Of a DNA stretch of 64,000 nt, positions 36,817 to 42,935 are shown one piece after another (within the stretch, counting starts at the first letter, position 1; the number at the start of each line of letters is the position of its first letter). The notes beneath the pieces are model-generated. The model did not search any database, was not told where the DNA came from, and worked only from the letters and a program-made list of their open reading frames with translations. Position numbers and translations under genes: made by a program. Source of the stretch: an uncultured Alphaproteobacteria bacterium (lineage in GTDB: Bacteria; Pseudomonadota; Alphaproteobacteria; Rhizobiales; Hyphomicrobiaceae); the NCBI GenBank assembly GCA_963732525.1, contig CAVSZX010000029.1, forward strand, positions 3,458 to 67,457, given 5' to 3'.

Positions 36817-38856
36817 TTATGAGCCGCCGCGGTCGTGGAAGAAATCGTAGATCTTCTGCGCCAGCTCGGACGAAATTCCTTCGACCGTCTTCAGATCCTC
36901 GACGCCGGCGCGCGACACCGCCTTGGCCGATCCGAAGTGCTTGAGCAGGGTGCGCTTGCGCGTCGGGCCGATGCCGTCGATCTCGTCGAGCGGATTGGCG
37001 CCGAGGGCTTTGGAACGCTTGGCGCGATGCGTGCCGATGGCGAAACGGTGGGCTTCATCGCGCAAGCGCTGCACGAAATAGAGCACGGGATCGCGGGGTT
37101 CGAGCATCTGCGGCTTGTCGCGGCCGGGCATGTGGAAGTGTTCGCGGCCGGCATCGCGATCGGGCCCCTTGGCGACGCCGATCAGGGCGATGTCGGTTAT
37201 TCCAAGCGCCGCGAAGACTTCTTCGGCGATGGCGAGTTGGCCCTTGCCGCCGTCGATCAGGACGAGATCGGGACTGGAAGGAATCGGTAATCCCCTCCTG
37301 GGGCCTACCCCTCCCGTGGGGGAGGTCGGGAGGGGGGAGTCCGTGACATCAAGGTCCGTGTTTCCCCTCACCGCAACTTCACGGATTCCCCCCACCCCTA
37401 TCCCCTCCCCACGAGGGGGAGGGGGACTTCCCGCCAGCCGCTTGAACCGCCGCGTCAGCACTTCGCGCATCATGGCGTAGTCGTCGCCGGGCGTGAGGTC
37501 GGCCGACTTGATGTTGAACTTGCGGTACTGGCCTTTGACGAAGCCTTCCGCGCCCGCGACGATCATGGCGCCGACGGCATTGGTGCCGGAGATGTGGCTG
37601 TTGTCGAAGACCTCGATGCGTCTTGGCGGCTCTTCGAGGCCGAAACGTTCGGCGAGCGCTTCGAGCAGATGCGTCTGCGTCGAATTCTCGGCGAGCTTGC
37701 GCCCCAAGGCTTCGCGCGCGTTGGCGAGTGCGTGATCGACGAGGCCCGACTTGGTGCCGCGCGAGGGCACGCGGATTTCGATTTTGCGTTCGGCCTTGAT
37801 CGAGAGGGCCTCGGCGAGCAGTTCGCGCGAGGGGATCTCGTGCGATAGCAGGATGAGACGCGGCACCGGCTTATCGTCGTAGAACTGGGCGATGAAGGCG
37901 TCGAGCACCTCTTCGACGGGCAGCGAGCGGTCGGCCTTCGGGTAGTAGGCGCGGTTGCCCCAGTTCTGCCCGGTGCGGAAGAAGAACACCTGGATGCAGG
38001 TCTGGCCGCCGTCCTGGTGCGCGGCGAAGACGTCGGCTTCTTCGACGCCTTCCGGGTTGATGCTCTGGTCGGCGGTGACGTGGGCGAGGGCCCACAGGCG
38101 ATTGCGATATTTGGCAGCCATTTCGAACTCGAGCTTTTCGGCGGCATCCTGCATCAGCTTTTGATACATGGCGCGCACGCTCTGGCTTTCGCCGCGCAAG
38201 AAGCGCACGGCTTCATCCGCAAGCTTCTTGTAGTCGTCGAGCCCGATCTCGCCCGTGCACGGCGCCGAGCAGCGCTTGATCTGGTAGAGCAGGCAGGGCC
38301 GGGTGCGGTTTTCGTAAAAGCTGTCGGAGCAGGTGCGAAGCAGGAACGCCCGCTGCAGCATGGTGATGGCGCGGCTGACGGCGCCGGCGGAGGCGAAGGG
38401 CCCGAAGTAGTCGCCCTTCCGGTTGCGGGCGCCGCGGTGCTTCATGACCTGGGGCGCGGGATGATCGCGCGAGATGAGGATATAGGGAAACGACTTGTCG
38501 TCGCGCATCAAGACGTTGAAGCGCGGCTTGAAGCGTTTGATCAGGTTGGCTTCGAGCAGCAGCGCTTCCGCCTCCGTGCGCACGGTGACGAATTCCATGG
38601 CCGTGGTCGCAAGGATCATGCGGGCGATGCGGTTGGTGTGGCCTTGCAGGCGGGCGTAGTTCGAGACTCGGGCTTTCAGCGACCGCGCCTTGCCGACGTA
38701 GATGACCTCGCCCGTGGCATCCAGCATGCGGTAGACGCCGGGCGAGGAGGGCAAGGACTTCAGGTAACGCGCGATGACGTCCGGGCCGCCCGGTACGTCC
38801 GGCAGCTTCGGCTCGTCGGTGGGCTCGTTGGGATCGCGGCCGTCTTTGCTCATCAT
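36817..38856 (-). CDS. uvrC: Excinuclease ABC subunit C, with an in-frame palindromic insert
   Basis: [37 protein letters not shown], HhH. Confidence 0.97.
37291..37427. repeat. REP-like palindromic element embedded in the uvrC coding sequence
   Basis: Minus strand CCCCCTCCCCCTCGTGGGGAGGGGATAGGGGTGGGGGG...CCCCCCTCCCGACCTCCCCCACGGGAGGGG; same architecture as 28415-28533. Confidence 0.85.
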
Positions 38857-38985: not shown

Positions 38986-39960
38986 ATGCGTCGCGTATTC
39001 GCTTGTCTCGTTGTGCTATTGGCCATTGCTCTGCCTGCAGCCGCCGCCACCAAGGCGAATAAAGCCAAGCCGCCGCGCCCCTTCACCAAGAGCGAAGAAC
39101 TGCTCGAGTGGATGAACGGCTACCGGCTGAAACCGGAGCCCAAGCGTCTGCCCGAAGCGGTTCGCGCCATGGTCAAGTCAAGCGTGACCAAGGATATGGA
39201 CCAGGCCGGTGTCTACATCGGCTTTACGGCGGGCGTCATCGGCTCGAACCCAGAAAACGCCGAGAAGCTGATCACCGAAATGTTCCCGCTCGATCCGCAG
39301 GATCAGGTGCTGCTCATCAAGGCGATTGCCTATTCGGGGCTTCCAGATTGGAAGGAGCTGATGCTCAAGTTCGTCGAGCGCATGCCGGCGCGCAAGGTTC
39401 TGATCGACAAGTTCGTGTTCGCCAAGAAGCCGACGCTGGAGAATTTGCCGTTCGAGGAAAGCTCATCCGCCATCGACATCAACTGGGGTTATTATTTCGC
39501 CACCGGATCGGAGGCACCCGTCAGGCGCATCGTGACGGCGCTGGCATGGTCGCAGGACAAGAACAACGTCGAGAAGCTGACGATGGGCGCCATGGCCAAG
39601 TGGACTCTCGCCCAGAATGCCTCGCGCGACATGGATTTGCTGCAAATGCTGAAGGCCATCGAGGCCGAGGACAAGACCGCCGCACGCGCCTCCTTGAACG
39701 AGGTGATCGAAGCGGCCGAGACGCTCGAGCTTTCCAAGATCCGCAAGCAGGCCATGGCCTCGATCGAGGAGCTGAAGGCCAAGGGTCCGGAGAGTACACG
39801 CACCTACAATTGGTGGGGACAGGCGGGCCAGACGGTGCTGGCGCTCGGCTGCGTCGCGGCGAGTGCCATGGGGCAGGTCGAGTTCGGAATTCCCTGCGTC
39901 GTCGGCGGCGCGCTTTCGACGGCGGCGTTGAAGTATCTGGGGCCGGATGGGGGGAAGTGA
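38986..39960 (+). CDS. Secreted alpha-helical hypothetical protein
   Basis: Signal peptide MRRVFACLVVLLAIALPAAAA; host-like codon usage; NWGYYFATGS motif; hydrophobic C-terminus. Confidence 0.8.
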   Translation: MRRVFACLVVLLAIALPAAAATKANKAKPPRPFTKSEELLEWMNGYRLKPEPKRLPEAVRAMVKSSVTKDMDQAGVYIGFTAGVIGSNPENAEKLITEMFPLDPQDQVLLIKAIAYSGLPDWKELMLKFVERMPARKVLIDKFVFAKKPTLENLPFEESSSAIDINWGYYFATGSEAPVRRIVTALAWSQDKNNVEKLTMGAMAKWTLAQNASRDMDLLQMLKAIEAEDKTAARASLNEVIEAAETLELSKIRKQAMASIEELKAKGPESTRTYNWWGQAGQTVLALGCVAASAMGQVEFGIPCVVGGALSTAALKYLGPDGGK

Positions 39961-39992: not shown

Positions 39993-40110
39993 TGTCATCC
40001 CGGGCAAGCACTCTTGCGAGGCCCGGGACCCAGGAAAACTTGAGCCGCAAGTGAGCTGGGTCCCGGCTCTGCGAAATCGGCTTCGCACGATTTCTCCGGC
40101 CGGGATGACA
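39993..40110. repeat. REP/RPE-like palindromic element, TGTCATCCCGG...CCGGGATGACA family (copy 1)
   Basis: 11-bp terminal inverted repeat; internal GGGACCCA/TGGGTCCC; 3' half nearly identical to 61687-61829. Confidence 0.9.
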
Positions 40111-40259
40111 ACGGTTTGGGCAGCGGGCAATCGCAAGTCGTTGATGTTAGCGATGATGGCGCATTGCGGCGGCGTAAGTGCTTGACGTTAGCTTTGATGC
40201 CGTTTGGAGCGCAACGCTCCTTCGTGCTAGTTTAGCCAAGGTGCCGAGTTGGGCATCTG

Positions 40260-40297
40260 GACGCCGGCTTCATTCAGTGAGCCGGCGTTTTTGTTTT
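40260..40297 (+). terminator. Rho-independent terminator
   Basis: ACGCCGGCT...AGCCGGCGT followed by TTTTGTTTT. Confidence 0.7.
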
Positions 40298-40414
40298 GAT
40301 TTTGAATCGTTAGGTCGGGCTGAGCCCTCTTGCGAAGCCAAACATACCTGATGTCCGCTGCCCTTCGCGCGCCGAAATCACGCGCCGCCCTCGCAACGGC
40401 CGTCATCCTGTATA

Positions 40415-40575
40415 TGCCCTGGCCGCTCTTGTAGGGTGGTTTTGCAACCGGAGCCCGTCGTCATCCTGAGTGCCTTAGCTCGTCGTACGGGCATGGGCCC
40501 GGTTGCAAAGGTCTTTTTCCGGACAGTCGCACGGGACCCGCCGCCAAGGCACGATCCCGCATACAGGACAGGATC
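40415..40575 (+). ncRNA. IS110 bridge RNA (5' hairpin, target-binding loop, donor-binding loop); ends approximate
   Basis: Stem TTTGCAACCGG 40441-40451 / CCGGTTGCAAA 40499-40509 encloses CGTCATCC and ACGGG; second loop holds ACAGTCGC 40523-40530 and ATACAGG 40561-40567 around a CGGGA..TCCCG stem. Confidence 0.82.
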
Positions 40576-40580
40576 AAGCC

Positions 40581-41531
40581 ATGACACTCATCACCGCCGC
40601 CGGCATCGATGCCGGCAAAGCATTTCTCGACGTCGCCTTCGCACCCGGCACCACATCGTTCCGCGTTGACAACACGGCCGCCGGCATCAAGTTTATCCTG
40701 ACGCGTTTGAAGCGCGCCGGAATAACCCGCGTCGTTCTCGAGGCCATCGGAGGATATGCCCAACCGCTGGTGCGGGCACTCGCCGCTAAGGGCTTCAGCG
40801 TCGGCCTCGTCAACCCCCGCCGCATCAAGGCCTTCCGCGATGCCGAGGGGCGCCGCGCCAAGAACGACAGGCTGGACGCCGCCCTCATTGCGCGCTTTGC
40901 TCTCATCATGACCGATGCCATCAGACCACTGCCCTCCGAAGCCCAGCTCGCCGTCAAAGCCCTTGCACACCGGCGCAGACAGCTCGTCGACATGATCGCC
41001 ATGGAGAAGACGCGCCTCAAACAGGCGATCGATCCCGGCATCGTGCAAAGCCACCGCACAACCATAAAAAGTCTCTCGACCGAGCGCTGCGCCATCGAAG
41101 AAAAACTCGATGCCGCGCTGGCCCGCGATCCCGATGTGGCGCGCCGCCGCGAGATCCTCACGTCGATCCCCGGTATCGGCAGACAGGTCGCAACCGTACT
41201 CGCAACCGACATGCCGGAACTCGGCACCCTCGATCAAAAAGCCGCCGCAAGCCTCTCAGGCCTCGCCCCCCAAATCCACCAAAGCGGCATGACGCCAGGC
41301 CGCGCTCATATCGGCGGCGGACGGCCATGCGTGCGGGCCGCTCTTTACATGGCAGCTCTCTCAGCCGTGAGATCGAACACGCGCTTCAAGGCGATCTACA
41401 CCGACATGCGAACCAAGGGCAAACCCGCAAAAGTCGCGCTCGTCGCCGTCGCACGAAAACTCGTCACCGTCGCCAATGCACTCGTCAGAGCCAACGCCAC
41501 GTTCGAGAAAAATCACGTGGAACGCACTTGA
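40581..41531 (+). CDS. IS110 transposase / bridge recombinase (DEDD RuvC-like + Tnp), intact, 316 aa
   Basis: GIDAGK, VLEAIG, AKNDRLDA, SIPGIG, HQSG catalytic Ser, R.ALYMAA, ALVAVARKL. Confidence 0.96.
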   Translation: MTLITAAGIDAGKAFLDVAFAPGTTSFRVDNTAAGIKFILTRLKRAGITRVVLEAIGGYAQPLVRALAAKGFSVGLVNPRRIKAFRDAEGRRAKNDRLDAALIARFALIMTDAIRPLPSEAQLAVKALAHRRRQLVDMIAMEKTRLKQAIDPGIVQSHRTTIKSLSTERCAIEEKLDAALARDPDVARRREILTSIPGIGRQVATVLATDMPELGTLDQKAAASLSGLAPQIHQSGMTPGRAHIGGGRPCVRAALYMAALSAVRSNTRFKAIYTDMRTKGKPAKVALVAVARKLVTVANALVRANATFEKNHVERT

Positions 41532-41549
41532 CAAAACAACACAGTCGCC

Positions 41550-41955
41550 CGTCGCCGGAGCGGGGACCGCTCCGGATCCTGCGGACGGGATCCATGCAAG
41601 TTTCCGCATGGCTCAGGCGCGAAGGTCCCCGTTTTGGTTCTGCATCGGACCCGAGTTCGACAGACGTTGCGTCGAAACCCCCGCCTAGCGCCGAAATCGC
41701 CGTACGATTTCGGAACGAGGCGGGAGCCCCGGGCAAGTGTCCACGTGAGGAACTGTGAATGTCGAAAACTAGGCGAGCGTGTTCCAGCGGGCCAACGACG
41801 CGCTCGGGTCTGATGCAGCGGCGGACGGGGACCTCTCCTGCAGAGCATTGCGGCGGCTTGCGTGGATCCCCGCCTGCGCGGCCGAAGCCGCTTCGGCGCG
41901 GCGAAGGCCCGCCGCAGGATCCGCTCGCCAGTGGCGAGCGGCGCGGGGGACGAAC
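41550..41955 (+). repeat. Large nested inverted-repeat element; its 5' tip (40400-40408) is separated by the IS110
   Basis: Three long nested stems (41587/41870, 41623/41834, 41640/41818) plus internal hairpins; REP-like termini. Confidence 0.7.
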
Positions 41956-42025: not shown

Positions 42026-42535
42026 CTACGCCGTACGCAGGCTCTGCAAATGCACTTCCAGCTGATCGAGCGTGCCGCCGAAGCCCTGGGCGAGGGAGGG
42101 CTTCAAGTCGGCGTAGAACTTTTCTTCCGCCGGCGTCGCGCCGAAGGCTGAGGAACGGAGGGAGAGCCTGGTCTTTCCAGCGGCCTCGGTGAATAAAATC
42201 GTATTCGCCATCTCCAGCGGGCAATCGGCGCTGAAAGGCGCCCGCGTGATGCCGCCGCCCGGGTTCGAAAACGAATTCAACCAGGCGATGCGTTTCAGGG
42301 TCTCGATCTCGCGGTAGAAGAAACGGCCCCACATTTCGGCGCCGGTCGAATAGGACATGCGATAGTGGAACAATCCGCCGGGGCGAAAGTCGAGGGACAC
42401 GATATCGATTTTGCAGCCCTTGGGGCCCCACCAGCGCTGCAGGTGCTCGATTTCCGAATGGGCTTTCCAGACGAGGTCGAGGGGGGCGTCGAAGATGCGC
42501 TCGAGTTCGAAAACGTGGTCGATTTTGCCGGACAT
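42026..42535 (-). CDS. SRPBCC/AHSA1-like domain protein
   Basis: LERIFDAPLDLVWKA, RWWGPKG, DFRPGG, GFGGTLDQL. Confidence 0.92.
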   Translation of the reverse strand: MSGKIDHVFELERIFDAPLDLVWKAHSEIEHLQRWWGPKGCKIDIVSLDFRPGGLFHYRMSYSTGAEMWGRFFYREIETLKRIAWLNSFSNPGGGITRAPFSADCPLEMANTILFTEAAGKTRLSLRSSAFGATPAEEKFYADLKPSLAQGFGGTLDQLEVHLQSLRTA

Positions 42536-42572
42536 GGTTGCACTCCGATTTTTCTAACGGATAGAGGACTAC

Positions 42573-42935
42573 TCAAGTTTTTCGGTTTGGACGCTTGCTC
42601 TTTTTGGGTTTGGCCTGAACCTTCTGGAGATAGGTATCGAGGCGGTCGAAGCGCTCCTCCCAAAGCCGCCGGTAGCGCTCGAGCCAGTCGTCGACGTCAC
42701 GCAGCGCCTGTGGTTTCAGCTTGCATGGCCGCCATTGCGCTTCGCGGCTGCGCGTGATGAGCCCGGCGCTTTCCAGCACCTTCAGGTGCTTTGAAATCGC
42801 CGGCAGCGAAATGTCGAAAGGCTCGGCGAGCTCCGTGACAGAGGTTTTCCCAAGGGCAAGTCGCGCCAGAATGGCGCGCCGGGTCGGATCGGCGAGGGCG
42901 GCAAAAGTATCGCTCAAGGTATCGGCGGTCGGCAT
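42573..42935 (-). CDS. ArsR/SmtB family transcriptional regulator
   Basis: FAALADPTRRAILARL, VTELAEPF..SLPAISKHLKVLE. Confidence 0.95.
   Translation of the reverse strand: MPTADTLSDTFAALADPTRRAILARLALGKTSVTELAEPFDISLPAISKHLKVLESAGLITRSREAQWRPCKLKPQALRDVDDWLERYRRLWEERFDRLDTYLQKVQAKPKKSKRPNRKT

Follow-up and report, generated by a model that had tools for sequence, protein, structure and literature searches.

The stretch of DNA analysed here (the window, 64,000 nucleotides of contig CAVSZX010000029.1 from an uncultured alphaproteobacterium of the Hyphomicrobiaceae) carries on its plus strand an IS110-group element of 1139 bp (40409..41547) lying between two CC dinucleotides, the left core at 40407..40408 and the right core at 41548..41549, both established by string check and copy comparison. 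The element consists of a 172-nt left end that encodes the guides of a predicted bridge RNA, the gene of a 316-aa IS110 recombinase (40581..41531, plus strand) and a right end of 16 nt. Its terminal bases constitute the two halves of the donor, with the left donor ACAGTCG at 41541..41547 (string check and copy comparison) and the right donor TGTAT at 40409..40413. Outside the cores lie the two halves of the target, a palindromic repeat (REP) of the host: the left target nCGTCAT at 40400..40406, whose bases 40401-40404 are the CGTC tag of the REP, and, at 41550..41594, the right target CGTCG with the remainder of the interrupted repeat, including its inner hairpin, its 3' arm (41584-41591) and a CCA tail. 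The left flank and core together (40400-40408) read CCGTCATCC, and the right junction (41541-54) reads ACAGTCG-CC-CGTCG. Upstream are uvrC (TIGR00194; window 36817-38856, minus strand) and the gene of a 323-aa protein without an NCBIfam match (about 38989-39960, plus strand), the latter followed by a terminator-like hairpin (40259-40290); neither gene is related to the element. Downstream, at 42026-42935 on the minus strand, there is an apparent small regulator/SRPBCC-like pair, which we take to be unrelated as well.

The genome sampled (3.1 Mb, 65% complete) holds the element in five copies on five contigs; four do not differ at any of their 1139 nt, and the remaining one carries 3 SNPs. All five have the arrangement nCGTCAT-CC/TGTAT ... 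ACAGTCG/CC-CG(T/C)CG and differ in their outer flanks; one copy of the five (C26) has a mismatch at target position 12. Since the G before the right core and the T after the left core both differ from the empty site, the 2-base CC overlap is exactly fixed. The absence of terminal inverted repeats, the short core at both ends and the restoration of the target upon removal are those of the IS110 family, and the layout, with a long left end bearing RNA guides, a short right end and no long subterminal inverted repeat, is that of the IS110 rather than the IS1111 group. The IS110 membership, the limits and the CC core proposed by the first-pass annotation were thus upheld by the five copies, which all agree on the boundaries, and by nine exact empty sites; every string that it had named was found in its place. 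A CCC run in the host repeat could blur the register, so that the true core might be CT or a single base, and the multiple copies might be an assembly artefact. Both ideas are refuted by the copy comparison and by the guides, and their probability is close to nil: the bases adjoining the cores fix the overlap, both right guides carry GG, five different pairs of flanks occur on five contigs, and contigs from independent runs begin or stop at the element's boundaries. Neither a circle junction nor an empty allele occurred among the contigs of 8 public runs; contigs drop rare forms, and this absence is therefore no evidence.

The recombinase combines an N-terminal DEDD RuvC-like domain (PF01548) with a C-terminal domain bearing the catalytic Ser (PF02371), and scores 208 bits against NCBIfam NF033542, for which the cut-off is 140. 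It aligns to IS621 and ISCro4 with E values of about 1e-31, its D10, E54, D96, D99 and S235 falling on D11, E60, D102, D105 and S241 of IS621, with E-A-I-G at residues 54-57 and the wedge residues Y256, M257 and L260. The predicted model (mean pLDDT 84.7) has a TM score of 0.79 to the IS621 (8WT9) and ISCro4 structures. The unbroken reading frame and the aligned catalytic columns bear out the earlier statement that the DEDD and Ser motifs are kept with no frameshift. The description of the protein as compact was dropped: IS621 has 326 aa, and 316 aa falls inside the 311-372 aa range of the 120 relatives among the matches listed.

Relatives were gathered at 136 loci, and the core could be called in 114. 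Among these, 65 loci have a CC core, 59 of them with both junctions (6 were dropped), which gave 34 distinct left ends, 33 with enough flanking DNA. In the present element, the predicted bridge RNA starts with a 5' stem-loop (40422..40440), drawn from the fold in a region that aligns poorly among relatives. It is followed by a predicted target-binding loop (40441..40509), with an outer stem, an inner stem-loop and two guides, for which fold and comparative covariation agree, and by a predicted donor-binding loop (40518..40573), closed by a short outer stem (40518-20 with 40571-73) that was found by comparison. No Rfam family was found at the locus. Folding of the left end, as the first-pass annotation had suggested, yields an energy within the range of shuffled sequences (z -1.34; 15 of 200 shuffles equally good), and the minimum-energy fold partly closes loop 1 and lacks the outer stem of loop 2. 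It is comparative covariation that supports the two-loop shape. Counted over 28 of the 34 left ends, those with long inserts (six) having been set aside, two-sided changes occur in 26 of 30 pairs and involve all four helices, and stem pairing amounts to 91.7%, against 71.5% in shuffled and 33-50% in slid alignments. The structure, like the bulged register described below, was first spotted by eye or with RNAalifold in the sequences later used for counting, so the test favours that structure. In two relatives (L012 and L101) the first stretch of the left end, as far as the left target guide, is present as a tandem duplication, which gives the appearance of an element that recombined with the sequence of its own guide.

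Four guides can be assigned within the two loops. The left target guide TCGTCATCC (40458..40466) leaves target position 1 without a match, as happens in 26 of 33 elements; this position being matched in only 7/33, the 8/9 match noted earlier for the left target is normal. The right target guide, CG-(T bulge)-ACGGG (40484..40491), is predicted to pair with target positions 8-14 (CC-CGTCG). The annotation had rightly placed ACGGG (40487-91), but at 5 nt that guide was too short, as it extends across 40484-40491. In the donor loop, the left donor guide ACAGTCGC (40523..40530) was located by string check and in relatives, and the right donor guide ATACAGG (40561..40567) is contiguous and matches 7/7. 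When the left end was shuffled 20,000 times with its dinucleotides preserved, no shuffle reproduced all four guides, nor did any reproduce three.

The complementarity claimed for all four guides was borne out, and for three of them guides and flanks covary among the 33 relatives, the comparison that had been proposed as a check. Left target positions 2-7 match the element's own flanks in 191 of 198 cases (111.5+/-6.6 when shuffled), right target positions 10-12 in 90 of 99 (48.9+/-3.7) and the right donor in 165 of 165 (140.2+/-3.2), the observed value being reached in 0/10,000 shuffles in each case. These nulls overstate significance, since the relatives are kin and not independent. Collapsed to 24 distinct guide pairs, the figures become 137/144 for the left target (null 72) and 63/72 for the right target (null 30). 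Five different right-donor sequences occur, each with its exact complement in the guide. The left donor guide is invariant in the lineage, so that for this guide complementarity alone is shown. The GG that would pair with the core is present in 34/34 right target guides and 33/34 right donor guides.

Each loop would also contain a handshake guide, a role taken from Hiraizumi 2024. In the target loop (predicted at 40492..40493) its C, found in 34/34 elements, is complementary to the G of donor position 7; the complementarity holds in all 34, but both partners are invariant. In the donor loop (predicted at 40568..40569) its A is complementary to the T of target position 7, a match seen in 15/34 elements only, for which reason the donor-loop handshake was dropped as a lineage rule. 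Here, in both loops, the first base of the handshake guide matches the partner expected after strand exchange and not the one before it, which would favour insertion.

The right target guide also covers target positions 13-14. In the 29 of 31 elements with a conserved CG linker, positions 13-14 agree with the guide in 51 of 58 cases when the register is set by this upstream CG anchor, against 12/58 in the opposite register and 17.3 after shuffling; the pattern had been noticed by eye before the anchor was defined. Pairing would be contiguous in 14 elements and skip one base in 15, the present element included. It is thus very probable that seven bases are read by the right target guide, and that two registers occur in nature, one contiguous and one with a single bulged base. 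Longer natural right guides have been reported in PMC11208160, in whose main text, Extended Data Fig. 5b,c aside, the word "bulge" does not appear.

By analogy with IS621 (PMC11208160, PMC11208158 and PMC13626964), the following course of transposition may be proposed. The ends of the excised element would join at CC into a circle, whether through double- or single-stranded excision being disputed (bioRxiv 10.64898/2026.08.31.748434). The joined ends would set TTGACA, the predicted -35 box of a circle-junction promoter (41528..41533, overlapping the stop codon), 17-18 nt from TATA-like bases of the left end, with the right donor lying within the predicted -10-like box, and the bridge RNA would then be expressed from the left end. 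This RNA would pair with the joined donor ends and with a 13-base site in one subfamily of CGTC-tagged REP hairpins, and four recombinase subunits, assembled into a tetramer whose RuvC/Ser sites are composite, would carry out strand exchange at CC, cleaving after core position 9. A TTGA lies 17-21 nt before the core in 34/34 elements; the -10-like box of the junction matches at best 4/6, and a sigma-70 scan of the linear form gave 0 sites.

The missing consensus promoter in the linear form is expected whether the element moves or not, and could also be taken as a sign that it is now silent, its copies being relics of a past burst and its guides out of use. The subterminal inverted repeat flanking the donor, which in the IS110 group measures 2-3 bp, is degraded here to 1/3 bases; among the 34 elements it is kept at 3/3 in 10, 2/3 in 15 and 1/3 in 9. 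Silence is nevertheless improbable, given four copies that agree at every one of 1139 nt, a fifth that departs at just three positions, the intact reading frame with all catalytic residues and the perfect -35 box. The earlier "probably active" is supported only in the sense of recent activity, on the strength of the four identical copies. Taken together, the element is, with a probability of roughly 0.9, an intact IS110-group insertion sequence that has multiplied recently, has CC at either end and likely moves in the manner of IS621.

The repeats into which the element has inserted have an unpaired CGTC/TGTC tag, a stem starting with AT and a CCA tail, as do the CGTC-tagged REPs described in PMC3733652, with which they also share head-to-head dimers and an alphaproteobacterial host. 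The stem of 8-9 bp with a loop of 4-5 bases given for that superfamily is absent: the targeted units have an extended stem and a long loop with an inner hairpin. Short-loop REP units do occur in the genome, all of them unoccupied. All five insertions and the nine empty sites lie in one CGTC-tagged subfamily, defined by the tag, the AT stem opening, the inner hairpin with covarying arms, the 3' arm and the CCA tail; that the arms of the inner hairpin vary together between copies (for example C1, C5, C9, C13, C22 and C23) points to selection on REP structure. The nine exact empty 13-mer sites compare with 0.65 expected under an order-3 Markov model. The genome contains 175 empty [CT]GTCATCCCG sites, and the element fills 4/13 of the exact 13-mers against 1/167 of the other [CT]GTCATCCCG sites (Fisher p 8e-5). 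The alphaproteobacterial palindromic repeat predicted as target was accordingly confirmed, with CGTC REPs at 5/5 insertions and at the nine empty sites.

The REP that the element interrupts belongs to an inverted dimer (window 41587-41632 and 41825-41925), whose minus-strand partner has a degenerate tag and is unoccupied. A TGTC-tagged REP dimer at window 39993-40110, 300 bases upstream of the element, is also unoccupied, and none of the 128 TGTCATCCCG sites of the genome holds the element. No RAYT/IS200 transposase (PF01797) was found in the 65%-complete genome. The links between CGTC repeats and transposase genes given in Di Nocera 2013 (PMC3733652) are fortuitous ones only.

The confinement to one long-loop subfamily raises the possibility that target choice needs a dual match, of REP hairpin as well as guide pairing, with the long stem around the core helping to open the site. 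Such a dual match has been reported for ISPpu10 (bioRxiv 10.64898/2026.03.19.712850), where the stem lies 5' of the core and not 3' of it as here. Copy C26 entered a long REP despite its position-12 mismatch, and 0/12 empty sites with G at position 12 and matching positions 13-14 are filled. Among the relatives, the core of the restored target falls within a predicted DNA stem in 21/21 cases against 100/180 control CC sites (the test covered 21 elements, 13/34 having flanks too short), and a REP-like tag lies nearby in 13/21 restored targets against 59/180 controls. However, sequence alone accounts for the pattern in this genome, the numbers are tiny, and repeats would be favoured anyway because they are many and intergenic. 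With all exact 13-mers in one subfamily, effects of structure and sequence are inseparable, and a hairpin requirement seems rather doubtful. The CC-core lineage would seem to be specialised for palindromic repeats, which its members enter at different registers. In two uncultured alphaproteobacterial genomes (L011-L032), many copies have left targets fixed at the REP 3' end, before a CCA-type tail, and right targets that vary widely, which suggests that right-guide pairing is relaxed there. CT-core IS110s were seen in CCTC-tagged repeats (CCTCATC-CT-GAG) in one genome (L052-L056 of G379) and at L096 and L125, which makes this repeat superfamily a target shared by the CT and the CC lineages. 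L096 itself has CT at its left end and GT at its right.

The distribution of the core among relatives follows identity to the present recombinase. Above 48% identity CC is found in 65/65 called loci, whereas the 49 called loci below this value have 48 CT, 1 GT and 0 CC cores. After deduplication, CC occurs in 38/38 rows at >=50% identity and in 0/42 outgroup rows, and in a quick tree of the 80 deduplicated rows the 38 CC rows form one side of a branch with an SH-aLRT value of 98. On these sequences, the CC core is a trait of a whole lineage. We infer that the switch from CT to CC happened once, in the ancestor of this lineage (>=50% identity; named members Hyphomicrobiales/Alphaproteobacteria), and it would have come with A-to-G changes in both right guides and with changes in the RuvC domain, among them that of Thr62 to Ile beside the Gly that reads the core T. 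The presence of CC in 5/5 copies and throughout the lineage departs from the CT core and near-invariant T9 published for the IS621/ISCro4 subtype, and makes the element a variant outside the studied CT-core subtype. The rarity of a non-CT core implied by the first-pass annotation did not hold, given a whole lineage with CC and CC-core donors in published supplementary data.

Several loci seen in the course of this comparison may be mentioned. The genome's second IS110 family (three copies on C11, C6 and C18, loci L049-L051; about 40% identity, 1178 bp) has a CT core, the left donor ATGGTTG and E-A-T-G, and thus provides a natural CT/CC pair in one cell that can serve as an internal control. 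In Sinorhizobium meliloti 1021, pSymB carries an unannotated IS110 (L239) with a CT left junction and a CG right junction. A decayed member of the CC lineage in Methylocapsa aurea (L024:1498-2450) has Thr at position 56, a right donor guide of CT type and CC at both DNA ends. A search for a second CC lineage by donor-loop pattern (72 viral and 30 genome loci) gave no IS110 beyond the genome's own copy, viral contigs gave no relative, and no plasmid match exceeded 43% identity.

How the CC core is set can be viewed in two ways. For IS621, PMC11208158 calls the second base of the core (T9) "almost invariant" and has it read by G63 through its main-chain amide, while A61 and N84 lie close to core position 8. 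Residue 56 of the present protein, the equivalent of IS621 Thr62, is I/V in 35/38 CC rows and in 120/120 homologues among the matches listed, and T/S in 41/42 other rows. Seven residues mark the CC branch, Ile56 and six more, and six of the seven lie in the RuvC domain. Together with the absence of CC from all 42 outgroup rows, several of which have the same left donor, these observations argue that the protein takes part, and the view that the lineage's protein changes shift preference towards C comes just short of an even chance. Its stronger form, a re-tuned position-9 pocket (Thr62 to Ile with neighbouring RuvC changes) that accepts CC at full efficiency and CT poorly, is put forward tentatively, as the less likely case. 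The same marker residues are weighed down by descent: since the core switched on one branch, its link to Ile56 is a single event, shared with the six other marker residues.

It is at least an even bet, if only by a little, that nothing but the RNA determines the CC core. The recombinase would then tolerate either pyrimidine at position 9, Ile56 would be a neutral marker of the lineage, and the shift to CC would simply reflect the CC present in the stems of its REP targets. Gly57 is conserved, as are Ala55 (or Ser) and Asn78 (or Asp), CC has one origin only, and the core lies in a predicted stem in all of the restored targets, as counted above. Moreover, three CC rows keep Thr, namely L076 and L081, with intact catalytic residues, and L024, which is frameshifted and has D99G; on their account the proposition that Ile56 is required for CC was dropped. 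An RNA-only core would leave less easily explained why T9 is protein-read and almost invariant in IS621, why no outgroup row has CC, and why Ile/Val and the RuvC-domain markers run so uniformly through the lineage.

The interest of the protein-based reading lies in what it would allow. In the published work consulted, reprogramming of the core changed its first base only, and non-CT cores were less efficient (PMC11208160); in a 2026 preprint, orthogonal cores were required to prevent two bridge RNAs from cross-reacting, and GT came at the price of lower efficiency; and another paper sees the CT preference as a limitation that the mining of orthologues should lift. As the element uses CC instead of the CT preferred by editing tools, it would be a candidate for a second, non-cross-reacting tool. 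If its pocket were indeed tuned to CC, the element could be combined with IS621/ISCro4 as an orthogonal system when two guides are used in editing. Its bulge-tolerant right guide would supply a built-in read-out of 13-14 target bases, and its sequence would indicate which residues must be altered to release the one base of bridge recombination that is still fixed. In any case, a recently active CC-core element with assigned guides and a residue hypothesis makes the question of core preference directly testable, and IS110s are shown exploiting CGTC REPs across a lineage. What is new beyond the first reading is the CC core as a lineage trait, Ile/Val at the Thr62 position and the 7-base right target guide.

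With regard to earlier descriptions, the text of the literature searched gave no account of a natural CC-core IS110 lineage. CC-core members may have been catalogued already, for example in ISfinder, or tested among the 72 orthologues that Perry et al. screened. In Durrant 2024, Supplementary Data 1 and 2 do contain rows that share CC at the core and have CC/GG guides in the paired RNAs, with the left donor ACAGTTG, unlike the ACAGTCG found here. In the supplementary files, a 10-letter CC-core motif occurs 141 times (14 occurrences inspected) and two 14-letter motifs at least 57 times; the present element's own donor was not found in the searched text of the Supplementary Data, and the passages of the paper examined contain no discussion of the CC-core donors.

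The nearest named elements found, ISMex17 and ISMno7 (IS110s of Methylobacteriaceae, named in the plasmid annotation; about 40% identity), have the same left-end RNA layout, and ISMex17 even the same left donor, ACAGTCG; both differ in having a CT core and E-A-T-G. Insertion of an IS110 at a fixed base of a REP is shared with ISRm19 of Sinorhizobium meliloti, ISPpu9 and ISPpu10 (as reported in PMC1525189, PMC12288879 and bioRxiv 10.64898/2026.03.19.712850), whose repeats and guides differ from those of the present element. ISRm19, with 4/4 copies in REPs (PMC1525189), is an alphaproteobacterial precedent; ISPpu10 has a CT core and ISPpu9 is described with AG, which is CT on the other strand. 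With IS621 of E. coli and ISCro4/IS622 (PMC11208160, PMC11208158, PMC13626964 and bioRxiv 10.1101/2025.05.14.653916; PDB 8WT6-8WT9 and 9T56), the element shares the RuvC-coiled coil-Tnp fold at about 30% identity, the DEDD and Ser residues, the long left and short right ends, a two-loop RNA (predicted here), a donor of the ACAGT..-core-TGTAT type, the predicted right-end -35 box, the predicted handshake positions and a REP target; the IS621 donor given in the first-pass annotation, ACAGTAT-CT-TGTAT, agrees with Supplementary Table 2 of Durrant 2024. It differs from them in its core, CC in place of CT, both right guides having G where an A would face position 9, and from IS621 in carrying Ile at the position of Thr62, in a right donor guide that is contiguous over 7 bases where that of IS621 is discontinuous, in a right target guide that naturally spans 7 bases and bulges out one more where IS621 has 4 bases, and in targeting a CGTC-tagged REP where IS621 targets the E. 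coli REP. The element is, in these respects, an expected extension of a known system and not a new mechanism.
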